DNA of 64,000 nucleotides, taken from positions 32,357-96,356 of the forward strand of contig CAZWFX010000003.1 of assembly GCA_964633425.1 (NCBI GenBank), written 5' to 3'. Both the position numbers and the translations under genes were made by a program. The notes under the pieces are model-generated. The model ran no database searches. It saw only the letters and a list, made by a program, of their open reading frames with translations, and had not been told where the DNA came from. Source of the DNA: an uncultured Candidatus Saccharibacteria bacterium. GTDB lineage: Bacteria > Patescibacteriota > Minisyncoccia > Phycocordibacterales > UBA2100. This document shows, piece by piece, positions 1-7,809 of this stretch. Numbering within the stretch: position 1 is the first letter of the stretch; every line of letters begins with the position of its first letter.

Positions 1-2
1 AT

Positions 3-188
3 GCCGACGGTATCGAAAAGGCGATTCGTGTCGGAGGTGATTCGGAAACCTATGCAGCGGTTGCGGGGGCACTTTTGGGTGCTCGGTTCGGCATTCACGA
101 CATCCCTGGTGCATGGCGCAAAGACATGATGGGTGTCGACGTGATGCTCGGCATTGCCGACGACCTGTACGAGATCGCTCACCGCTGA
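3..188 (+). CDS. ADP-ribosylglycohydrolase family protein, C-terminal part (5' end outside window)
   Basis: Frame 3 reads ADGIEKAIRVGGDSETYAAVAGALLGARFGIHDIPGAWRKD... The GGD(S/T)xT..A..GAL.GA.(F/Y)G..IP..W block is the C-terminal signature of the ARH/DraG family. Stop TGA at 186-188. There is no start codon inside the window. Confidence 0.7.
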   Translation, partial: ADGIEKAIRVGGDSETYAAVAGALLGARFGIHDIPGAWRKDMMGVDVMLGIADDLYEIAHR

Positions 189-196
189 GGTGGGTA

Positions 197-235
197 CTAA
201 AAAACGGCCGCCTTTCGAGGCGGCCGTGCTTTTAT
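197..235. terminator. bidirectional rho-independent terminator between the convergent ARH and NrtR-like genes
   Basis: Perfect 8-bp GC stem CGGCCGCC(205-212)-TTTCGA-GGCGGCCG(219-226), with an A-run on the 5' side and a T-rich tract on the 3' side. Confidence 0.7.
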
Positions 236-930
236 ATAATTTCAATCTCTTTGACCTTGTCGCTCGCAAACCGATACAGCTGCGCGGGCCGGAAGCGTCC
301 GCCGGTTCGCTTGCGCGGCAGTTCTTTGAGAATATCGAGCTTCAGGATTTTTTTACGGAAATTGCGCTTATCAAGTTCGTGACCGAGCGTAGCCTCGTAC
401 ATTTGTTCGAGCTCCGTCAGCGTGAACTCTTTCGGCATGAGCTTACCGATCAGTGTTGTGTAGGTCATGCGCGAATGTAGGCGAGTGAGTGCTACAGACA
501 GCATGTCGGTGTGATCGTATGCAAGCGTGACTTTCTTGCCGGCGGGGGCCCACCAGCAATCATCTGTGTCGGACTGTTCCGTGTGCGAGAGCGAGCTCCA
601 CGGAACATACGCGATGTAGCCCACGGCGACCACGCGCCCGCGCGGATCGCGATCGACTTGGCTGAATGTATAGAGCTGTTCCATGTACACCTTGTCGGGA
701 TCGACACATGCTTTTGCAGAGAGGTGACGGCGCGCGGCGTCTTCTGCGGTTTCTTTCGGATCAATAAGGCCGCCGGGGAATCCCTGTGAGTTTGCGAAGT
801 AGGGTGGTCGATTCACGGCAACGAGTCGCATATGAAGCTGACCGTCCTTGACGGTAAACAGCGTGACGTCGGTTGCGAGCACCGCAAAGCGCAGATGCTC
901 CGGAGAGGGAACGAATGTTCCGTTGGACAT
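232..930 (-). CDS. NrtR-like regulator: Nudix-fold domain with degenerate Nudix box plus C-terminal winged helix
   Basis: 232-aa ORF. The Nudix box region GLIDPKETAEDAARRHLSAKACV keeps G-x5-E-x7-R, but the REUxEE glutamates are replaced. The C-terminus (FTLTELEQMYEATLGHELDKRNFRKKILKL...) looks like the wHTH of NrtR-type ADP-ribose-responsive repressors. Confidence 0.7.
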   Translation of the reverse strand: MSNGTFVPSPEHLRFAVLATDVTLFTVKDGQLHMRLVAVNRPPYFANSQGFPGGLIDPKETAEDAARRHLSAKACVDPDKVYMEQLYTFSQVDRDPRGRVVAVGYIAYVPWSSLSHTEQSDTDDCWWAPAGKKVTLAYDHTDMLSVALTRLHSRMTYTTLIGKLMPKEFTLTELEQMYEATLGHELDKRNFRKKILKLDILKELPRKRTGGRFRPAQLYRFASDKVKEIEII

Positions 931-936
931 AGATAC

Positions 937-964
937 ACTGTACAGAACAAATAGTTATTGTCAA
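937..964 (-). promoter_or_regulatory. sigma70-type promoter positioned for a leaderless NrtR-like mRNA
   Basis: On the minus strand: TTGACA (964-959), a 16-nt spacer, TACAGT (942-937), 6 nt, then ATG (930-928). No Shine-Dalgarno sequence lies upstream of the ATG. Confidence 0.5.
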
Positions 965-999
965 ATATACACTTATCAACAGGTTATTTAGTGTAGTAT

Positions 1000-1149
1000 T
1001 GACACTATGTTAAACCGGGAATACTGTGCGAAGTAGGAGTAGGACATGTGTTCTCTGACATAGTGCGTACATATATTGACAGTGTCAGTTCAAAATGTGA
1101 CAGTTTCGCCGGTTTGCTACTTCGTTAGCACAAGGTCTTTGACAGTGTG
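1000..1149. promoter_or_regulatory. array of five TGACA-type repeats (candidate operators) in the divergent control region
   Basis: Copies are TGACACTATG(1000), TGACATAGTG(1056), TGACAGTGTC(1077), TGACAGTTTC(1098) and TGACAGTGTG(1140). The last four are spaced 21/21/42 bp. The 1077 copy is the perfect palindrome TGACA-G-TGTCA. Confidence 0.55.
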
Positions 1150-1165
1150 CTAGTGAATCTAAAGT
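1139..1165 (+). promoter_or_regulatory. candidate promoter of the three-gene operon
   Basis: TTGACA (1139-1144), 15 nt, TAAAGT (1160-1165), about 35 nt upstream of the ATG at 1203. The spacer is short, so this is tentative. Confidence 0.3.
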
Positions 1166-1202
1166 ACCTGAGACTGAGTTCAACCCAGAGGAGAACTACC
1201 AG

Positions 1203-2396
1203 ATGACGACCGAATCCAATGCCGCACCCGCGGTTGTGCCGCAGGCGTGGATCGACTACATCGGCCCGTTCGTTTCCGTGATCGGTAAGCCGATCGAGGA
1301 GGTGAATACGGCGCTCAGCGCAATCGTCGGGGACCCCGGCGAACAGGCGATCGCGCTCCTCAAGGACGCGAACCTGACTCCGGACGCCGCGATCAAGAGT
1401 GCGTTCCAGGGTATGCCGCTCGGCATTCTGAATCTCGCGATCACCAAGCTCCGTGCGGCACCTGTTGCCGCCACGCCGGTTTCGTTCGGCGGGCTCGATA
1501 TTCTGCCCGACGTGCCGACCGAGCAATCGTGGCTCTCGGCGCTCCGCGCAGGCGGGGCACTGAAGGTCAGTCAGGCGACGGTCACCTCTGCGATTCGTGC
1601 GACGCTCGCTCACCGCGCCGGTCTCTACGACCTGCCGGCGATCCTGGTCGAACGCATCGAGAAGTTCGCCGATGACAACGCCGAGCAAGTCGGCACCGAC
1701 TTCTTCGCGCTGCGCAAGCAGTTGCGCAAGAAGGAGTACGCCGAAGTGTTCGAGGCGATCGGCATCGACGGTCTCGACGGCAACTACGTCACCGACAAGC
1801 GCAAGAATGATCTGTTCGTCCGCATCGACGGCGACCTGTGGCCTGCCATCGTGTCCTTCCAGGGCACGCTGAAGGGCTGGGTCGACTCGTGGCAGACGCA
1901 GTCCAACAATCCCGGACTGATGATGCAGAACATGATGGCGATCATGTCGGGCGGCGTCGGCGCCGTTCCGCAGGCATTCATGATGCAGGCGCCGGATACC
2001 GGCGTGCTGCACGATGCGGCCGACGGCTTCAACGACGTGATCAACAAGGTCTTCGCCGGCACCCGCATGCCGATCGCCAGTGCGCTCGCGCACGAAGCGA
2101 CGCAGATCGTGAAGACGCTCGAGAATCCGGCACTGCCCGGATATATCGGTGCGGCCAATCGCGATCAGATGCTGCGTATGCTCGGCGTCGAAGTTGCGGC
2201 AACGTATCCGCGCATGGAGGTCAATCTGATCAAGTACGTGATGAGCGTGCTCAAGATCAAGGACCTCTCGGCCGGACCGGAAGAGCAGCAGTTCTTCGTC
2301 GCGCTCTCGATGCTGGGCAATTCGATCCCGTGGGATCAGCTCGGCCTCGGCAAGCGCAATCGTCCCGACACTGAGCGGCGCCCTCGCGCGCTGTAA
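1203..2396 (+). CDS. hypothetical protein (397 aa, helix-rich, Met/Gln-rich segment), no recognisable family
   Basis: Long ORF in a high-GC region. SD GAGGAG (1188-1193) lies 9 nt before the ATG. The opposite-strand 484-aa ORF is R-rich shadow noise. I recognise no catalytic or binding motif. Confidence 0.8.
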   Translation: MTTESNAAPAVVPQAWIDYIGPFVSVIGKPIEEVNTALSAIVGDPGEQAIALLKDANLTPDAAIKSAFQGMPLGILNLAITKLRAAPVAATPVSFGGLDILPDVPTEQSWLSALRAGGALKVSQATVTSAIRATLAHRAGLYDLPAILVERIEKFADDNAEQVGTDFFALRKQLRKKEYAEVFEAIGIDGLDGNYVTDKRKNDLFVRIDGDLWPAIVSFQGTLKGWVDSWQTQSNNPGLMMQNMMAIMSGGVGAVPQAFMMQAPDTGVLHDAADGFNDVINKVFAGTRMPIASALAHEATQIVKTLENPALPGYIGAANRDQMLRMLGVEVAATYPRMEVNLIKYVMSVLKIKDLSAGPEEQQFFVALSMLGNSIPWDQLGLGKRNRPDTERRPRAL

Positions 2397-2414
2397 CAGA
2401 ACGGACATCAATGG

Positions 2415-2440
2415 GAGGCGGCACCGTTCGGTGCCGCCTC
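2415..2440 (+). promoter_or_regulatory. strong intercistronic GC hairpin (possible attenuator or mRNA-stability element)
   Basis: Perfect 11-bp stem GAGGCGGCACC-GTTC-GGTGCCGCCTC, followed by GAATTCTTTG, which is only a weak U-tract. It lies between gene A and the pseudokinase gene. Confidence 0.6.
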
Positions 2441-2465
2441 GAATTCTTTGAAAAGGATTGCACCG

Positions 2466-3578
2466 ATGATGGATGCAGATCTTCTGCCCGTCTACGAACG
2501 CATCATGCAGGCCGCACGGCCTGAGGATGTGTTCGAAGAATTGTCGGTCGTGCTTCCGCCGCGTCTCATGGAAAAGCATCTGCAGCCCGAAATGGATGCA
2601 ATGCGCTCCGTGCTTGATGCGGACCGCTACTCGTCACTCGATGACAAGGAGGCGGCACGACTCGCCAAGCCGAAGCTCGAAGAGTTCTATCGGATGGCGC
2701 TCGAGCGCGCGGCCAAAGGCCTCTACGCGCCCGAGGACTACACGCCCTACGTTCCGACCGGCAACGGTCGGACGATCATCGTCGACGGCACGACATATAC
2801 GGTCGGTGAAAAGTTCCACGTGGGAGAGCATTCCGCTCTCTACAAGGGACGCATGGCGATCGATCAGGGAAGTGCGGGTGTCATTATTCGGATCGCGAAT
2901 GATCCGGGTACCAACCCCTACGTTCTCAACGAGATCGGCATGCTCGATCAACTGCATCGTGTCGACGTGGGATACTGGCGTCACATTCCGTTCATGCTCG
3001 GCCGCTTTTCGGCGGGCGATCGTATCGGTCTTGTGACGCGCTACTTCTCAGGTCACACACTCACCGAGGTGCGCGCAAACAAACTGCATCGCGATGGTCT
3101 CGACCAGCGCCATGTGGTGTGGGTGCTCGACAGAATGCTCGGGCTCATGTGGTACTACCACGAGCTCGGCATCGTGCACGGTCGGATCGAACCGGAGAGA
3201 ATCCGTGTTCGGCCGTACAACCACAATGCGCTCCTTACCGGCTGGGGACACGCGGTCTTCAAGCCGGCGATCACCGGACAGAAGCTTGCTTCTGTCGGCG
3301 GAATATTCGAAGCCCCGGAAATCGGGGATTCGGGTGCCGTCGGTCCGTGGACCGACATCTACAGTCTCGGCAAAACGCTCATCTGGCTCATCGGCGGCGA
3401 TCCCGCCACCAATGAAATGCCCGATCGCGTCGAACCGAAACTGCGACAGTTTCTGGCGAACATGGTGTGGAAGAGCCCCAAGGCTCGACCGCACAATGCC
3501 CGTCAGCTCTACGACGCTCAAAACAGGTTGAAAGACACCCTGTGGGAGCGGCGATTCGTCCACATGCCCATGGCATAA
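2466..3578 (+). CDS. protein-kinase-fold protein, predicted pseudokinase, with helical J-domain-like N-terminus
   Basis: Kinase C-lobe signatures are kept: FEAPE (APE) and TDIYSLGKTLIWLIGG. The catalytic positions read GVIIRIA (Lys->Arg), HGRIEPERI (HRDxKxxN lost) and GWG (DFG lost). ATG at 2466 follows AAGGA; the ORF track offers a TTG at 2448. Confidence 0.75.
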   Translation: MMDADLLPVYERIMQAARPEDVFEELSVVLPPRLMEKHLQPEMDAMRSVLDADRYSSLDDKEAARLAKPKLEEFYRMALERAAKGLYAPEDYTPYVPTGNGRTIIVDGTTYTVGEKFHVGEHSALYKGRMAIDQGSAGVIIRIANDPGTNPYVLNEIGMLDQLHRVDVGYWRHIPFMLGRFSAGDRIGLVTRYFSGHTLTEVRANKLHRDGLDQRHVVWVLDRMLGLMWYYHELGIVHGRIEPERIRVRPYNHNALLTGWGHAVFKPAITGQKLASVGGIFEAPEIGDSGAVGPWTDIYSLGKTLIWLIGGDPATNEMPDRVEPKLRQFLANMVWKSPKARPHNARQLYDAQNRLKDTLWERRFVHMPMA

Positions 3579-3593
3579 CAAGGGAGACTACAC

Positions 3594-5033
3594 GTGAAGA
3601 CATCAAGGATCAGTTCTCGCGCCGACGCTGAAGTCGCACTCACCAATGTGCGCTCCAGCGCGACCGCGTTCTCGCATAGCGAAGCGATGACGCGCTCCGG
3701 CGTCGGACGGTGTCACCCGAATCTCAACCCGAAGGGTGTGGTTCGCGAGTGCCTCGATACGAGGCAGATGCCGTTCGTCACGCCGATCGCAATCGGCATG
3801 GATATCACGAAGTCGCGCGGCAACGATGCACGAATCGTGTACGAACAGACGATGCCGTTTTTGGGCTCGCTGTTCATGTCGGGCGCCGTCACCGATCCGC
3901 AGATTCTGTTTGCGGGTATCGGCGACGCGACCGTCGACACGGCGCCGCTCCAGGTGGGGCAGTTCGAGTCCGATGACCGCATGGACAAGGATCTCGAGCG
4001 TATGTGGCTCGAGGGCGGCGGCGGCGGAACAGGCCAGGAGTCGTACGAGCTGTTTGCGTATCTGCTCGCTCGCAAGACCAAGATCGACGCGATCGACAAG
4101 CGCGGCAAGAAGGGCTACTGCTTCTTCACTGCCGACGAAGCGCCGTATCCGTTCGTGAAGAAGACCGAAGTCGAGACCGTTTTCGGCGACAAGCTGAAGA
4201 AGGACATCCCGACGCCGGCGATCTTCGCGGAGCTGCAGAAGAAGTTCCGCACGTTCCTGGTCTATCCGGGCAAGCCGATGGCCGAGCGGCAGACCGACAT
4301 CGACGCCGAGATCCGTCAGCGCTTGCTGAAGGCCGGCGGCCGATTCGAGAACTGCTCGATCCGGGCGACGCTGATCTGGAACAGCTTCACCGACCTCGAT
4401 CTGCACGTCGTCACGCCGGACCGCGACCACATCTACTACGGCGATCGCACCTCCAGGTGCGGCGGCACGCTCGATGTGGATCGCAATGCGACCGGTCGCG
4501 AGACCCGCGAGCCGGTGGAAAATATCCGCTGGCCCAAGGGCACCGCGAAGCCGGGCAAGTATCGCGTCTACGTCCAGAACTTCGCCGAGCACGAACGCGA
4601 CGGCAAGAATACGCCGTTCAAGGTCGAGCTCGACCTCGACGGAAAGATCCAGACCTTCGAGGGTGTCATGAAGGCCGGCACCACCAAGGGGTCGAGTGAC
4701 AAAACTGCGTTCGAGTTCGACTACGTGCCGGAAGGCATGCAGCAGGCGAACGCGCAGGGTCGCGAGGCCTACGCCGACGAGACCATCCTCGGCGAGTGGC
4801 GCACGTGCATTCCGGACGGCCACATCATCCGGCTGACGGATGCAAAGTGGACGACCGAAGCCATGATCGGCGTCATGGGTATCCAGAGCGGAAAGAAGAC
4901 ACTCAGGCAGGTCCTTGCGGACATGCACGAACGTGCCGTCGATCCGAAGGGTATCAAGGACGTCGAGCTCGCGCTCAAGCCGTTCGCCGCGCAGGCGGTG
5001 ATCGACGAAGTCGGCGAAGAAGCATTCACTTGA
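3594..5033 (+). CDS. vWA domain protein fused to YfaP/DUF2135-like domain plus extra C-terminal domain
   Basis: GTG start after GGGAG. MIDAS-like residues: GMDITKS ... GGGGGTGQESYE ... FFTADE. The later segment LIWNSFTDLDLHVVTPDRDHIYYGDRTSRCGGTLDVDRNA...EPVENIRW...GKYRVYVQNF matches the DUF2135 pattern (LDLHV..P.G..I.Y....GG.L..D). Confidence 0.75.
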   Translation: MKTSRISSRADAEVALTNVRSSATAFSHSEAMTRSGVGRCHPNLNPKGVVRECLDTRQMPFVTPIAIGMDITKSRGNDARIVYEQTMPFLGSLFMSGAVTDPQILFAGIGDATVDTAPLQVGQFESDDRMDKDLERMWLEGGGGGTGQESYELFAYLLARKTKIDAIDKRGKKGYCFFTADEAPYPFVKKTEVETVFGDKLKKDIPTPAIFAELQKKFRTFLVYPGKPMAERQTDIDAEIRQRLLKAGGRFENCSIRATLIWNSFTDLDLHVVTPDRDHIYYGDRTSRCGGTLDVDRNATGRETREPVENIRWPKGTAKPGKYRVYVQNFAEHERDGKNTPFKVELDLDGKIQTFEGVMKAGTTKGSSDKTAFEFDYVPEGMQQANAQGREAYADETILGEWRTCIPDGHIIRLTDAKWTTEAMIGVMGIQSGKKTLRQVLADMHERAVDPKGIKDVELALKPFAAQAVIDEVGEEAFT

Positions 5034-5060
5034 CACGCAGTCAATACAGTCGCACATTAC

Positions 5061-5098
5061 GGGGAGCGCCTTTCGGGGCGCTCCTTTGCTTTTGATCC
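5061..5098 (+). terminator. rho-independent terminator after the three-gene operon
   Basis: GGAGCGCC(5063-5070)-TTTCGG-GGCGCTCC(5077-5084), followed by TTTGCTTTTG. Confidence 0.75.
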
Positions 5099-5117
5099 TT
5101 TACAGGAGGGAATAGAA

Positions 5118-6461
5118 ATGAAAAAGCACGCAACGATCGTCGTGGATCTCGGATTCGGCGATGCGGGCAAAGGCACCATCGTCGATCACGTCGCGCGACG
5201 CGGCGGATACGCATCCGTCGTTCGATTCAATGGGGGCGGTCAGGCTGCACACAATGTGGTCCTGCCCGACGGCCGACACCATACGTTCCGTCAGTTCGGC
5301 AGTGCCACGTTCGTGCCGGGGATCCGGACGCATCTCTCGCGCTTCATGCTCGTCGATCCGTTCGAACTCATTCACGAAGCGAATCTCCTGGTGGACGCCG
5401 GCGTTCGTGATCCGCTTGCGCGGCACTCGATCGACGAGCATGCGCTCGTCGTTGCTCCTCATAGCAAGAATGCCAATCGCGTGCGCGAAGCCCGTCGTGG
5501 AAACGGCAGGCACGGCACGTGTGCAATGGGTATCGGCGAGACGATGGACATGTCGATCAAACATCCGGAGATGGCCATCCGTGCGCGCGACCTGCTCGAT
5601 CTGAGCGTAGTCACTCGCAAGTTGAACCGCATCGCGGAGTATGTTGCGGTCGAATTCAAGGACGATCCGCTCTACAAGGAGCTGGAAAATACTCCGGCCG
5701 CGAGTCGCACTGGTGCGTGGTTCGCAGATGCGCCGCCGAGCGAGTGGGCAGGAATGCTCCACGAAATCGGAAAACGCATCACGATCGTCGATGACAAACA
5801 TCTGTGGCGCATCGCGCGCAGCGGAAACTTGCTGTTCGAAGGTTCGCAGGGAGTTTTGCTCGACGAATGGCGCGGATTTCATCCGTATACCACGTGGTCG
5901 ACAACGACTGCAGAGAATGCTCGAACCTTGCTTCAGGAAGCAGGCTACGAGTATTCAACGGAGACGATCGGCGTCCTGCGCGCGTTTCATACGCGTCATG
6001 GCGAAGGTCCGTTCCCGACGGAAAATGCGACGCTCACGAAACTGCTACCCGATAGTCACAACGACAACATCGGTCCGCAGGGAGTGTTTCGTGTCGGCTG
6101 GTTTGATGCGGTGCTCGCACAGTACGCGCTTGATGTATGCGGCGGCGTTGATTCGCTTGCGATCACACATCTCGATCGCTTCGACGCACTGGCTGATCCG
6201 CAGATCTGCCTCGGATACAAATCTGCAAACGGTGCGTTTGCGCGAATTCCGGTGAATCCGGTCAAGGAAGATCTTGTTGCGCAGGCAGAGATCACGAAGT
6301 TGGTCGCGCGTGCGCAACCGCTGTACCAACCCGCGCGCCTGGTGGGCGATCCCTATGCCAGGATGATCGCAGACATGGTTTCGACACCGGTCTCGATAAC
6401 GTCGTACGGGCCGACCTCGGCGGACAAGCGAGTCCTCGGGAGGCGCGTTCGCGCAGCGTAA
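5118..6461 (+). CDS. adenylosuccinate synthetase (PurA) family ligase, divergent paralog
   Basis: Family motifs are present: P-loop GDAGKGTIVD (cf. GDEGKGK), GGGQAAHNV (cf. GGxNAGHT), GTCAMGIGET, HGEGPFPTE, THLD and SYGPTSADK. The Asp-binding loop reads NIGPQGVFRVGW instead of GxTTGRxRRxGW. A strong SD, AGGAGGG, precedes the start. Confidence 0.8.
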   Translation: MKKHATIVVDLGFGDAGKGTIVDHVARRGGYASVVRFNGGGQAAHNVVLPDGRHHTFRQFGSATFVPGIRTHLSRFMLVDPFELIHEANLLVDAGVRDPLARHSIDEHALVVAPHSKNANRVREARRGNGRHGTCAMGIGETMDMSIKHPEMAIRARDLLDLSVVTRKLNRIAEYVAVEFKDDPLYKELENTPAASRTGAWFADAPPSEWAGMLHEIGKRITIVDDKHLWRIARSGNLLFEGSQGVLLDEWRGFHPYTTWSTTTAENARTLLQEAGYEYSTETIGVLRAFHTRHGEGPFPTENATLTKLLPDSHNDNIGPQGVFRVGWFDAVLAQYALDVCGGVDSLAITHLDRFDALADPQICLGYKSANGAFARIPVNPVKEDLVAQAEITKLVARAQPLYQPARLVGDPYARMIADMVSTPVSITSYGPTSADKRVLGRRVRAA

Positions 6462-6474
6462 GTTCTTTGAGACT

Positions 6475-6510
6475 CAGCCTTCGGCTCACGCCGAAGGCTG
6501 TTCTTTTTTA
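6475..6510 (+). terminator. rho-independent terminator
   Basis: CAGCCTTCGG-CTCACG-CCGAAGGCTG, followed by TTCTTTTTTA. Confidence 0.8.
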
Positions 6511-6512
6511 TG

Positions 6513-6518
6513 TAAGAT
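6513..6518 (+). promoter_or_regulatory. -10-like hexamer placed for a leaderless TfoX-like mRNA
   Basis: TAAGAT, then 6 nt, then ATG (6525). No SD is present. Confidence 0.4.
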
Positions 6519-6524
6519 GTACCG

Positions 6525-6875
6525 ATGGCAACGCAGCCCGAAACAATGGAATTTATTTTGGAAAAACTTGGCGACAACAAAGTCTTTACGTCGCGACGTA
6601 TGTTCGGTGAATATGCACTGTACGCGAATACGAAGCCGGTCGCATTTGTCTGCGACGATCTGCTGTACGTAAAGATTCTGCCGGAAAGCGCCGCACTAGA
6701 GGATGTGTGCGAAAAGGGCCACGCATACCCGGGCTCAAAGCTCTATTACATTGTGGAGGAATCGCAGCTCTCCTCGCTTGAGGACTTGCCGCAGCTCTTG
6801 ATCGACATGGCAAAATCTATCCCGGCAAAGAAAAAGAAAGCCAAAAAGACTGCGCATACACGTTCGACTAAATAA
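6525..6875 (+). CDS. TfoX N-terminal domain protein with Lys-rich tail
   Basis: RRMFGEYALYANTKPVAFVCDDLLYVKI matches the TfoX_N pattern (MFG.Y.LY..g..fa.i.dd.LYlK). Confidence 0.65.
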   Translation: MATQPETMEFILEKLGDNKVFTSRRMFGEYALYANTKPVAFVCDDLLYVKILPESAALEDVCEKGHAYPGSKLYYIVEESQLSSLEDLPQLLIDMAKSIPAKKKKAKKTAHTRSTK

Positions 6876-6898
6876 GCGCGTCCGTGTACAATCGCGAC

Positions 6899-7012
6899 AT
6901 GGGACGAATTTCACCGATCGCGCCGCGAAAGTCGAAGTCTCGCAAGACCGCTAAGCGTCTTGCGAAAAAGGCTGACATGCTCAAGGCCCGCGCAACAAAA
7001 AAGCGCGCATAG
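6899..7012 (+). CDS. possible small basic protein (37 aa)
   Basis: MGRISPIAPRKSKSRKTAKRLAKKADMLKARATKKRA, followed by a hairpin and T-run (about 7021-7046). It is below the ORF-track size cut-off and no homology is recognised. Confidence 0.3.
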   Translation: MGRISPIAPRKSKSRKTAKRLAKKADMLKARATKKRA

Positions 7013-7077
7013 ATCACAAAAGCTCCGGTAACCCCGGGGCTTTTGACTTATAAGCACGGAAGTTCATACTTTTGGGC

Positions 7078-7809
7078 ATGAGGCATACCTTCGTCGTGGC
7101 AGCCGGGATCCTTGCTGTCTGTGTCGGCGTAGTTCTCTTTACGCACTACGATAAAGCGGGCATGGACCGGATCAGCGAGGATTCCGGAATGTATTCGTAT
7201 ACCTGCTCAAATGGCGCCGAGCTCAGCATGACTCCGTCGGAGGGTATGTCATCCGTACATGTGGTGCCGGGTGCCGGTGCGTCGTTTCCGGAAACGTCAT
7301 TAGCACAGAAAGATGTGCAGACGTACGGAACGGGCGACATGACGCTTGTGGGGTCCGGTGAACACATTCGTGTAATCAGCGCCGGCACGACGTACGAATG
7401 CGATCCTGTGCCGAGTCAGACTGATGCGCCGTTCAATTGGGGCGATCCGTCCGAGGGTGCGGCTGTCTCGCACGAAAGTGCCGAGACTGTACGTGCGAAC
7501 ATCGTGGGGACGTGGCGCAGCGTCGAAGACCCCTTGTCGGTCAGAGAGTTTTTAAGTAGTGGTTCAGTCATCGATACATATGATGACGGGGAGCCATATC
7601 GGCAGGGGTGGTCCGTCTTTACGAAGGACGATGCGCCTGCGGCAGTGCTCGGGTTTACTCCGGAGGCGGGACGGGTGTATATCAGCATGCGTGAAGGCGG
7701 CGACGCAGTTCCCGGAATGTTTTTTAGCGTCGACAATCTTACTGCGGATACGCTCGAGATGACGTACATGGACCGCGGCAGCGCGCTTACATACAAACGC
7801 GTTCAGTAA
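7078..7809 (+). CDS. membrane-anchored protein with MliC-like N-domain and C-terminal beta-rich domain
   Basis: N-terminal TM segment. YTCSNGAELSMTP...SVHVVPG...Y..GDMTLVGSGEHIRV..AG..YEC resembles the MliC/C-type lysozyme inhibitor fold pattern and is paralogous to 11163-11540. Confidence 0.5.
   Translation: MRHTFVVAAGILAVCVGVVLFTHYDKAGMDRISEDSGMYSYTCSNGAELSMTPSEGMSSVHVVPGAGASFPETSLAQKDVQTYGTGDMTLVGSGEHIRVISAGTTYECDPVPSQTDAPFNWGDPSEGAAVSHESAETVRANIVGTWRSVEDPLSVREFLSSGSVIDTYDDGEPYRQGWSVFTKDDAPAAVLGFTPEAGRVYISMREGGDAVPGMFFSVDNLTADTLEMTYMDRGSALTYKRVQ

Follow-up and report, generated by a model that had tools for sequence, protein, structure and literature searches.

The described enzymes closest to the protein analysed here are adenylosuccinate synthetase, PurA (EC 6.3.4.4; PDB 1ade/1kjx), which uses IMP, aspartate and GTP, and PurZ/PurZ0, the phage N6-succino-2-amino-2′-deoxyadenylate synthases, PurA paralogues with a re-specified pocket that make a precursor of 2-aminoadenine (Z) DNA. 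The gene company at our locus recalls other known systems. In the TerY-P triad, a vWA protein is combined with a phosphatase and a kinase. Pairing of vWA proteins with NTPases is likewise documented for the ternary MoxR–vWA systems (Kaur et al., 2020, PMC7159879). On the regulatory side, the published type of NrtR box is a 21-bp palindrome with a GT-N7-AC core, ADP-ribose is the effector of the characterised NrtRs, and unknown NrtR targets have been listed under the names nrtX-nrtY (Rodionov et al., 2008, PMC2330246).

The window, i.e., the whole 64-kb stretch of Patescibacteria DNA that was analysed, contains a gene that public records label 'adenylosuccinate synthetase'. This gene is part of a self-contained mobile module together with a vWA gene, usually a kinase-like gene, and, in Patescibacteria, a gene for an accessory protein that we call protein X (Table 1). 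Judged by its sequence, the encoded protein belongs to a distinct and widespread PurA-fold clade and is very probably not a canonical adenylosuccinate synthetase. The explanation that we favor as a whole, at a probability of about 0.55 and with its specific chemistry left out of the estimate, is that of a non-canonical GTP-dependent enzyme that works in a vWA module.

Table 1. Features of the module and its surroundings in the window.
Feature	Position	Strand	Description
NrtR-like regulator, divergent from the module	232..930	-	Nudix-like and winged-helix domains; Pfam NrtR_WHD 86.9 bits, NUDIX 35 bits
Candidate NrtR operator 1	956..974		Palindrome; pattern match with 0 mismatches; overlaps –35 of the nrtR promoter (minus strand)
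Candidate NrtR operator 2	989..1007		TAGTGTAGTATTGACACTA; overlaps –35 of the module promoter
Protein X	1203..2396	+	All-helical accessory protein in Patescibacteria, Met/Gly-rich loop
Hairpin between protein X and kinase-like genes	2415..2440	+	11-bp stem, 9 G-C pairs, weak T tail
Kinase-like protein, probably pseudokinase	2448..3578	+	Pkinase 29.4 bits (below cut-off); phrog_3043 'kinase' 61 bits
vWA (MIDAS) protein	3594..5033	+	C-terminal YfaP/DUF2135-like beta-sandwich and helical tail; phrog_2971 169 bits, phrog_1735 107 bits
Candidate internal promoter	5030..5058	+	TTGACA (5030-5035), 17-nt spacer, CACATT (5053-5058); from sequence reading and conservation
Terminator-like hairpin between vWA and PurA-like genes	5061..5096	+	Stem 5061-5086, 11 bp, 7 G-C; T-rich tail
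Shine-Dalgarno sequence	5104..5109	+	AGGAGG, 8 nt before ATG (5118)
PurA-like enzyme, Q38/C129/H273/Q301 clade	5118..6461	+	ATG start, 447 aa
Terminator-like hairpin and T run closing the module	6475..6509	+	11-bp stem, then TTCTTTTTT

The open reading frame and every motif that the initial annotation had quoted from it were recovered in the translation (GDAGKGTIVD, GGGQAAHNV, GTCAMGIGET, HGEGPFPTE, THLD, NIGPQGVFRVGW, and SYGPTSADK). Pfam PF00709 extends over residues 7–434 with 217 bits, i.e., over a full-length PurA fold, and the best PDB matches are canonical PurA of E. coli (1kjx/1cg4; E ~1e-31, ~27% identity), whereas the protein stays far below the cut-offs of the curated PurA equivalogs, with 181.8 vs 402 bits for NF002223 and 155.5 vs 395.6 bits for TIGR00184. 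Relatives from Paceibacterota share 76% identity with it. In the alignment with E. coli PurA, the window protein shows the exchanges N38→Q, T42→N, T129→C, R131→M, and K331→H, and in the aspartate loop T300→P, T301→Q, a deletion of R303, and R305→F, which bears out the substitutions of Asn38, of the KLD motif (to HLD), and of the aspartate loop that had been noticed initially. D13, K16, H41, Q224, T239, D333, and S414 are retained.

These exchanges are not oddities of the window. Among 120 homologues, Q38, H273, and Q301 are each found in all 120, F305 in 117, and C129 in 104, and the P-loop, D13, K16, H41, Q224, D333, and S414 are kept in at least 118. The clade-wide changes relative to E. coli PurA are N38Q, T129C, R143D/E, V273H, T301Q, the deletion of R303, and R305F, with T300 replaced by W or P, R131 by M, S240 by Trp, and K331 by His or Asn as further states, and this pattern holds across phyla and phages; the window lineage departs from the clade consensus by having P, not W, at position 300. 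T300, T301, R303, R305, and R131, which we take from the structural literature on PurA to be the L-aspartate ligands, are replaced or deleted in every clade member, so that intact aspartate contacts, by which the initial annotation would have been refuted, did not emerge from the alignment. At the positions that presumably bind the IMP 5′-phosphate, namely N38, T129, T239, and R143 of the partner subunit, the clade has Q, C, T (kept), and E/D, respectively, with a 2-residue gap near R143 in the alignment. The substrate assignment depends on how the protein aligns to E. coli PurA and on residue roles taken from that structural literature. D13, K16, H41, and Q224, in our understanding, serve the first half-reaction of PurA, in which the GTP phosphoryl group is transferred to the 6-oxo group, and we assume that D333 and S414 form the guanine pocket of the GTP site. 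The conservation of these residues suggests that the PurA-like enzyme is probably catalytically active. Because the catalytic core is kept while the aspartate-binding residues are lost, and because the gene is a member of an uncharacterised module, the enzyme probably carries out an unknown nucleotide chemistry.

The current public label would be justified if the protein were a divergent but genuine adenylosuccinate synthetase on which a member of the Patescibacteria with a reduced genome relies to salvage purines, and this would agree with the PurA fold, with the intact catalytic residues (P-loop GD(A/E)GKG, D13/H41, Gln224, Thr239, Asp333/Ser414), and with the finding that there is no second PurA-family gene in the 64-kb window. 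We nevertheless regard this as highly improbable, as the aspartate ligands are exchanged throughout the clade, the scores are far too low for the curated models, and the clade is also found in Actinomadura, Streptomyces, Myxococcus, and Mycobacterium phages. Moreover, one genome (L057) encodes, 2.8 kb from a clade member, a canonical PurA that has all its motifs intact and shares 45% identity with the E. coli enzyme. Unlike canonical purA, the window gene does not stand in a purine context, and vWA and kinase-like genes are its constant company, with no recurrent PurB-like gene. The initial view of the protein as something other than an ordinary adenylosuccinate synthetase is supported, the replaced contacts being a property of the whole family.

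The initial annotation had also drawn an analogy to phage PurZ, and this analogy turned out to be only a loose one. The best PHROG of the window protein, phrog_1211, does include PurZ-annotated proteins, and the clade is frequent in phages, as would be expected for a PurZ/PurZ0-type enzyme making the precursor of Z-DNA, but on the NCBIfam PurZ model (NF038379) the protein reaches only 31.9 bits, with a cut-off of 300 bits. PurZ keeps aspartate use and much of the aspartate loop, and in the PurZ-like proteins that were sampled from phages (Klebsiella VLCpiS6a, Microbacterium Sucha) position 13 is Ser and R305/R306 are retained, whereas the clade has kept D13 and lost R303 and R305 along with the other aspartate ligands. 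In a neighbor-joining tree, the clade branches separately both from canonical PurA and from the PurZ-like proteins. Furthermore, over 80 bacterial loci and 46 viral contigs, no Z-genome genes (DNA polymerase, dATPase, dATP/dGTP-handling, or other Z-pathway genes) recur in the vicinity. We therefore give almost no credence to a role in Z-DNA synthesis.

The genomic neighborhood is highly consistent. Of 80 bacterial loci, 77 have a MIDAS-vWA gene directly upstream of the PurA-like gene, as do 44 of the 46 viral contigs; kinase-like genes are present in 71 of the 80 and 34 of the 46, respectively, and an NrtR-like gene adjoins the module in 53 of the bacterial loci. The vWA, kinase-like, and PurA-like genes are encoded on one strand, with a median gap of 12 nt between vWA and PurA-like genes, and the window has the defining arrangement of a vWA gene followed on the same strand by a PurA-like gene with the signature residues. 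Neither a PurB-like lyase nor any other conserved neighbor recurs beside the module in the 80 bacterial loci and 46 viral contigs. Genomes of at least 597 bacterial species, drawn from several phyla, carry the module, and its components are 45–55% identical across phyla. Its distribution is patchy, its GC content is higher than that of its flanks, and these flanks are housekeeping genes (RadA, Rho, polyprenyl synthase, sortase, MsrA) and not defence islands; in some Streptomyces loci, an extra Nudix hydrolase gene follows downstream. The functional tie to the upstream genes that had been suggested initially is borne out and much strengthened by this order, which is conserved across phyla and in phages, and the 'three-gene operon' of protein X, kinase-like, and vWA genes was indeed found to be conserved, but it has to be recast as part of a module under an NrtR-like repressor. 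Going by gene order, the PurA-like enzyme is likely to work with the vWA protein.

As to the partners, the AlphaFold2 model of the vWA protein (pLDDT 81.6) matched the vWA domains of integrin beta-I, SpaC, Sec23/24, Ku80, and Rpn10 in Foldseek searches with a probability of 1.0. The MIDAS motif DxTxS and a LEGGGGG..ESYEL stretch are conserved in this protein, and the N-terminal MGG of the family consensus is absent from the window protein. The kinase-like protein is probably a pseudokinase, as indicated by its sequence: the HRD Asp is replaced by Ala in 64 of 71 homologues (consensus HGAvLPxH), and this Asp is also lost in the window protein, which has HGRIEPER where the HRD motif would be expected, with the VAIK Lys changed to Arg and the DFG Asp to Gly, and which deviates from the family consensus in that even the Lys is absent. 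Many of the kinase-like partners bear a weak J-domain-like HPD motif. Protein X, whose homologues are 45–82% identical, had no match in Pfam, NCBIfam, PADLOC, or PHROG, and its model (pLDDT 80, all alpha) had no significant match in PDB or BFVD. In two loci (L141 and L143), its homologue is encoded immediately downstream of the PurA-like gene, and there is no significant similarity between protein X and the Met/Gly-rich protein that is encoded beside the pair in Rhizobium and Vibrio phages.

This set of partners resembles the MoxR–vWA (PMC7159879) and TerY-P systems in that the gene for a MIDAS-vWA protein is accompanied by genes for an NTP-using protein and for a kinase-like third component. 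A similar phyletic bias is seen as well, toward Actinomycetota, Myxococcota, Chloroflexota, and Planctomycetota. In contrast to these systems, the NTP-using partner has a PurA fold and is not an AAA+ protein, the kinase lacks its catalytic Asp, variable effector domains and a phosphatase are absent, and there is little sequence diversification. One could imagine that the PurA-like protein is a pseudoenzyme that yields no small-molecule product and that, like its counterparts in the MoxR–vWA pairs of NTPase and co-chaperone, serves a vWA/pseudokinase complex for signalling or chaperoning as a GTP-binding switch or as a scaffold. Two of the three PurA substrate sites are dismantled, the partner kinase is itself degenerate, weak HPD motifs are present in many kinase-like partners, and vWA–NTPase pairs have precedent, yet the catalytic base, the catalytic acid, and Q224 are invariant, and since the substituted positions Q38, H273, and Q301 are invariant polar residues, the pocket looks re-specified rather than decaying. 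We consider a pseudoenzyme improbable.

In the window, the regulator gene is adjacent to the module, with palindromic boxes in the promoter region between the two. Its product scores 141.7 bits with NCBIfam NtrR, which is below the equivalog cut-off, and its Nudix box, read from sequence, has no catalytic Glu residues. A minus-strand promoter-like site of nrtR is found at 964-937, and the module promoter consists of TTGACA (999-1004), a 17-nt spacer, and TACTGT (1022-1027), a TTGACA-17-TAnnnT arrangement that is kept in five loci (L003, L007, L009, L010, and L011). Both boxes are conserved in related loci, operator 1 in six Patescibacteria loci. Only two pattern sites occur in the entire 64 kb, both within 956-1007, and hence no NrtR box is present near the PurA-like gene itself. 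The locus thereby resembles described NrtR regulons (PMC2330246) in having a divergent or co-directional nrtR-like gene, boxes of ~21 bp with a GT-N7-AC core over promoters, and an inactive Nudix box, and it differs from them in that the module contains no known NAD-synthesis or pentose genes and in that the regulator remains below the equivalog cut-off. We infer that the module is controlled by an NrtR-like repressor through two candidate operators that overlap the divergent promoters; a response to ADP-ribose is suggested by analogy.

Further signals were found around the PurA-like gene. The strong Shine-Dalgarno sequence that had been reported initially is present. The gap in front of the gene had been described as free of promoter-like hexamers, and this is correct for 5087-5117, whereas a TTGACA/CACATT pair, its first hexamer a perfect one, is found just upstream of the hairpin. 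TTGACA, a 16–17 nt spacer, and a –10-like hexamer, 24–27 nt before the hairpin, are conserved in the window and in four related loci (L007, L008, L009, and L012). In the window, the TTGACA overlaps the vWA stop codon, which is not the case in L012, and the candidate scores below the threshold of the promoter scanner. This conserved pair could give the PurA-like gene an independent transcription start. Folding of 5030-5125 yielded –31.7 kcal/mol (z = –3.8), a hairpin is located at the same position in L007–L012, and Rfam searches over 1-7200 gave only sub-threshold, terminator-like matches. Since 17 of 20 loci with a vWA/PurA-like gap of at least 55 nt have a hairpin there, other lineages included, the recurrent hairpins fit an attenuating element inside the operon. 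The read-through proposed by the initial annotation is thus in line with the recurrence of the hairpin, while a dependence of expression on it is uncertain in view of the candidate promoter.

The kinase-like/vWA/PurA-like trio is also carried by ~200 genomes of Bxz1-type (Bixzunavirus, cluster C) mycobacteriophages, as exemplified by gp253–gp256 of LRRHood. The order is the same as in the window, with a Ser/Thr kinase (gp253), a vWA-like protein (gp254), and the PurA-like protein (gp256), these annotations resting on similarity, and gp256 belongs to the same clade, with 40% identity to the window protein and the same signature residues. In contrast to the window, these phages have a small extra gene (gp255) and neither NrtR nor protein X. 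The module is found as well in Rhizobium phage TM30, whose neighboring genes there include one of Nudix and one of PRTase-like type, in Vibrio phage TDDLMA, and in 46 IMG/VR contigs. Our literature search found no functional study of the module or of any Bxz1-type member, and the Kongming dITP paper and the comparative-genomics papers do not mention it.

With regard to the biological role, the trio might constitute a bacterial anti-phage defence, or a phage anti-defence or NAD/nucleotide-pool repair system, triggered by ADP-ribose from NAD cleavage. This proposal concerns the role and is compatible with the chemistry of the enzyme that we favor. It draws on the NrtR-type control with ADP-ribose as NrtR effector (PMC2330246), on the many large lytic phages that carry the module, on the Nudix and PRTase-like genes of TM30 and the additional Nudix hydrolase of the Streptomyces loci, and on the patchy distribution with elevated GC content. 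We nonetheless judge it unlikely. In PADLOC-DB v2, the PurA-like, vWA, and X proteins had no match and the kinase-like protein matched generic kinase models only; toxin and effector domains are absent from the module, its flanks are housekeeping genes, and all of its components are strongly conserved, unlike typical sensors.

Returning to a non-canonical GTP-dependent enzyme as the preferred explanation, the PurA-like protein would be an active GTP-dependent ligase or phosphotransferase. It would activate an oxo group, most likely that of a purine nucleoside or nucleotide bound without a 5′-phosphate clamp. A nucleophile that is not acidic, for instance ammonia or an amine, would then be joined to the activated group, and the vWA partner may present or carry this nucleophile. 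Such a pathway would require no PurB-type lyase. In bacteria, the NrtR ligand (ADP-ribose for those NrtRs that have been characterised) would induce the module, and this would tie it to NAD breakdown or nucleotide stress; a phage-borne module would serve infection. The specific chemistry, a 6-oxopurine coupled to a non-aspartate amine, is a tentative suggestion from the residue pattern. Of slightly lower probability is the wider idea that the trio is an unrecognised nucleotide-modifying or signalling system of large phages and bacteria, released in bacteria by NAD breakdown via ADP-ribose and NrtR, in which GTP is used to make a product novel among PurA relatives. This product could be a purine nucleotide or nucleoside that is substituted at N6 or aminated directly, or else a protein, presented by the vWA partner, to which a nucleotide has been added.

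In summary, after PurZ and the 2-aminoadenine phage genomes, the clade described here is a second group of PurA paralogues, and a much more widespread one, with dozens of large uncultured phages among its carriers. Through the label 'adenylosuccinate synthetase', Patescibacteria and other genomes are probably credited wrongly with a capacity for purine salvage. The link to NrtR suggests an undescribed connection between NAD breakdown and nucleotide chemistry, and with two tractable partners at hand, Bxz1-type phages and M. smegmatis, both the chemistry and the role of the module are open to direct tests.

The PurA-like protein of the window matches the Pfam family Adenylsucc_synt with 217 bits, spanning residues 7–434, and its closest solved structures are canonical PurA enzymes (E ~1e-31, ~27% identity). 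It scored below the cut-off in both curated PurA equivalog models (181.8 versus 402 bits and 155.5 versus 395.6 bits), and in the PurZ model (31.9 versus 300 bits), so that by these models it would be neither a PurA nor a PurZ, and its likeness to PurA would lie in the residues of the first half-reaction. The initial annotation had described a divergent PurA-family ligase with a rewritten aspartate loop, and all motifs that it quoted are found in the translated ORF. The substitutions are borne out by an HMMER alignment to E. coli PurA, which gives N38Q, T42N, GTTGRGIG to GTCAMGIG, TKLD to THLD, and, in the aspartate loop, GATTGRRRRTGW to NIGPQGV-FRVGW.

A database search showed that the protein belongs to a large family with 45–76% identity to it and with members from Patescibacteria and Actinomycetes; we aligned 120 clade members with E. 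coli PurA, whose residue numbering is used here. In PurA, D13, K16, H41, and Q224 carry out the O6-phosphorylation of IMP, the 5′-phosphate is gripped by N38, T129, T239, and R143′, and T300, T301, R303, and R305 are the ligands of L-aspartate. At least 118 of the 120 members keep G12, D13, G15, K16, G17, H41, Q224, T239, D333, and S414. The exchanges N38 to Q, V273 to H, and T301 to Q, as well as the deletion of R303, occur in every member, and nearly as constant are S240 to W (119/120) and R305 to F (117/120), followed by T300 to W (107/120; proline in the window lineage) and T129 to C (104/120, or V); R131 is replaced by M, R143 by D, E, or H, and K331 by H or N across the clade. Because of this conservation pattern and the residue roles in PurA, the clade appears to retain the machinery of the first half-reaction and the guanine pocket, with residue roles as in E. 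coli PurA, and other, equally conserved residues appear to have taken the place of the aspartate ligands and of most of the 5′-phosphate clamp. In a simple neighbor-joining tree without support values, read together with a residue table, this signature is common to bacteria of six phyla and gp256 of mycobacteriophage LRRHood, and proteins of Rhizobium phage TM30 and Vibrio phage TDDLMA are more distant relatives. Canonical PurA proteins branch apart, as do PurZ-like phage proteins, which have Ser13 and retain R305/R306. The clade is thus separate from both families, with the aspartate-contacting residues replaced rather than intact. At locus L057, from an Anaerolineae MAG, a clade member is followed 2.8 kb downstream by a canonical purA (6134–7399), whose product has all motifs intact and 45% identity to the E. 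coli enzyme but only 27% to the clade member; the two are therefore, as judged from sequence, probably paralogues with different jobs.

Features of the window discussed in the text
Feature	Position	Strand	Remark
NrtR-family gene	232–930	-	Nudix-like domain and NrtR winged helix
Palindrome 1, candidate NrtR box	956–974		overlaps perfect TTGACA -35 of divergent nrtR promoter
Palindrome 2, candidate NrtR box	989–1007		overlaps perfect TTGACA -35 of module promoter
Antisense ORF	1125–2579	-	484 aa
Protein X	1203–2396		all-helical
Kinase-like gene	2448–3578
vWA gene	3594–5033		C-terminal half 4290–5033
Antisense ORF	3603–5057	-	484 aa
TTGACA	5030–5035		17-nt spacer to CACATT
CACATT	5053–5058		directly upstream of hairpin
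Hairpin	5061–5086		T-rich tail
Antisense ORF	5100–5882	-	260 aa
AGGAGG	5104–5109
PurA-like ORF	5118–6461	+	ATG start, 447 aa
TfoX N-terminal-domain gene	6525–6875		116 aa, directly 3′ of module terminator

At least 597 genomes encode the clade in a scan with one genome per species. Among 80 loci from Patescibacteria, Actinomycetota, Myxococcota, Chloroflexota, Planctomycetota, Acidobacteriota, and one gammaproteobacterium, the vWA gene has a homologue in 77, the kinase-like gene in 71, and an NrtR-like gene is present in 53, nearly always in the order [NrtR]–kinase-like–vWA–PurA-like on a single strand. The vWA gene is separated from the PurA-like gene by a median of 12 nt, and by at most 20 nt in 48 of 77 loci, ORF starts in high-GC loci being approximated from HMM coordinates. 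No further recurring gene family, including a PurB-like lyase, was found beside the module in these 80 loci, and the flanks are ordinary housekeeping genes. Whichever reading of its transcription holds, the conserved gene order ties the PurA-like gene functionally to the genes around it, at the level of genome comparison. The block from X to the PurA-like gene (window 1200–6500) has a GC content of 0.57–0.64 versus ~0.50–0.56 in the flanks, with which the nrtR-like gene is counted; this difference could stem from horizontal acquisition or from a constraint on composition. The long antisense ORFs overlapping module genes have comparable counterparts in GC-rich homologous loci and look like by-products of sense-gene composition rather than genes. 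We found no evidence tying the TfoX N-terminal-domain gene to the module.

The vWA protein has no Pfam match, and its AF2 model (pLDDT 81.6) matches the vWA domains of integrin beta-I, SpaC, Sec23/24, Ku80, and Rpn10 with probability 1.0; its homologues conserve the MIDAS motif DxTxS and a striking LEGGGGG..ESYEL motif. Its C-terminal half is a YfaP/DUF2135-like beta-sandwich with a helical tail (phrog_1735; motif DLDLHV...LDVDRN), a fusion seen in many Patescibacteria and some Myxococcota and absent from actinobacterial and phage versions. An N-terminal MGG, mostly MGGG or MGGS, is present in 116 of 120 vWA partners (P0121–P0240), and this conserved Gly-Gly could have a role in the chemistry or processing of the system; the window lineage is the exception and starts with (V/M)KTSR (3594–3620). 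In the kinase-like protein, the HRD aspartate is replaced by alanine in 64 of 71 homologues (consensus HGAvLPxH), with the VAIK lysine and the alpha-C glutamate mostly retained, and in the window protein the VAIK lysine is moreover Arg and the DFG aspartate Gly, so that it is best called a putative pseudokinase or atypical kinase. An N-terminal HPD motif is seen in many of the homologues, along with weak DnaJ matches that stay below threshold. Protein X is highly conserved across Patescibacteria (45–82% identity) and has a Met/Gly/Pro-rich loop, and no fold relative was detected in PDB or BFVD; in some homologues, a SAM/HhH-like domain is present at the N terminus. In the window, X lies 5′ of the kinase-like gene, and elsewhere in Patescibacteria its homologue is directly 3′ of the PurA-like gene (L141, 7001–8218; L143, 7001–8197), and it is therefore a lineage-specific fourth member.

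The kinase-like/vWA/PurA-like trio is also carried by ~200 Bxz1-type (cluster C) mycobacteriophages, for example LRRHood, with gp253 ("serine/threonine kinase"), gp254, gp255, and gp256 ("PurA-like adenylosuccinate synthetase"), the latter phage annotation being based on similarity alone. Of 46 IMG/VR contigs, many of them 100–350 kb long, the vWA gene is found on 44 and the kinase-like gene on 34, and no additional recurrent gene was found beside the module. Rhizobium phage RHph_TM30 and Vibrio phage VB_VaC_TDDLMA have the vWA/PurA-like pair without the kinase. Just upstream of the pair, both encode a Met/Gly-rich protein of ~240–260 aa (L087, 2750–3541, TM30 gp016; L094, 6397–7116; 39% identical to each other), which may be an alternative third component. 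Near the pair, TM30 has a PRTase-like gene and a Nudix gene annotated as cytidyltransferase (L087, 1–1242; gp011, gp013), and TDDLMA has, 2.3 kb away, a Ro60/TROVE-like protein with a vWA motif (L094, 471–1979); links to NAD/ADP-ribose or RNA metabolism are possible. Taken as a whole, the module forms a self-contained, mobile unit.

There is good sequence support for NrtR-type repression of the module, namely the adjacent NrtR-family gene, whose Nudix box lacks the catalytic glutamates, the two conserved promoter-overlapping palindromes, and their fit to the published NrtR box: a palindrome of 21 bp, built around GT-N7-AC, from which ADP-ribose relieves binding (PMC2330246). The palindromes are the sole matches to the box pattern within the 64-kb window, and the 2-fold symmetric element TTGTCAA-N5-ACACTTA ... 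TAGTGT-N5-TTGACA (956–1027) recurs as a whole in six loci of Patescibacteria. Operons under NrtR control that had no known function ("nrtX-nrtY") were previously listed in Streptomyces, Frankia, Kineococcus, Proteus, and Hahella (Rodionov et al., 2008, Table 1; PMC2330246).

The hairpin, AGGAGG, and ATG agree with the description in the initial annotation. The PurA-like gene may depend on read-through, as proposed there from the lack of a promoter in the 19-nt gap after the terminator, or may have a promoter of its own, since a promoter-like element lies directly upstream of the hairpin. A candidate promoter of the gene's own would start transcription ~7 nt past the -10, within the 5′ arm of the hairpin, and its transcripts might escape the termination that stops those from upstream. 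In its favor, TTGACA-N16/17-(-10-like) is conserved 24–27 nt before a hairpin in L007, L008, L009, and L012 with diverged spacers, in L012 clear of the stop codon, and the main module promoter shares the form TTGACA-17-TAnnnT. Alternatively, the hairpin looks like a recurrent in-operon element tuning stability or stoichiometry, which would fit read-through: among the 20 loci whose gap measures 55 nt or more, 17 have an unbroken stem of 8 bp or longer, and the gap stems are unrelated in sequence and often without a T-run. This recurrence suggests that a structure, and not merely a terminator, is under selection. Strong gap hairpins were seen in L007–L012, L018, L019, L023, L026, L034, L044, L051, L057, and L069.

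We propose that the PurA-like enzyme is catalytically active, as a ligase or phosphotransferase that depends on GTP and acts on new substrates. These would be less anionic than those of PurA, as the missing arginines R131, R143, R303, and R305 indicate: no 5′-phosphate clamp would hold the acceptor, the nucleophile would be without carboxylates, and the new W/F/H/Q residues would line the pocket of the nucleophile. Since D13 and Q224 are retained, the signature suggests that the acceptor may still be a 6-oxopurine-like ring, and the absence of a lyase from the module suggests that its product needs no further step. For the MIDAS-vWA partner, docking on the enzyme and presentation of a substrate are both conceivable, and we speculate that the acidic residue at the R143 position is of the kind bound by MIDAS sites. 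The module is alike only in outline to vWA-NTPase ternary systems (PMC7159879). That the module is strongly conserved, has no effector domains, and is flanked by housekeeping genes argues against a classical defence system. The predicted control by NrtR and ADP-ribose, the Nudix genes near some loci, and the presence of the module in large lytic phages point to a role in nucleotide or NAD stress and phage–host conflict. No publication describing the module or clade was found in the literature searched, and we give a probability of about 0.3 to the module being a truly novel system for nucleotide modification or signaling.
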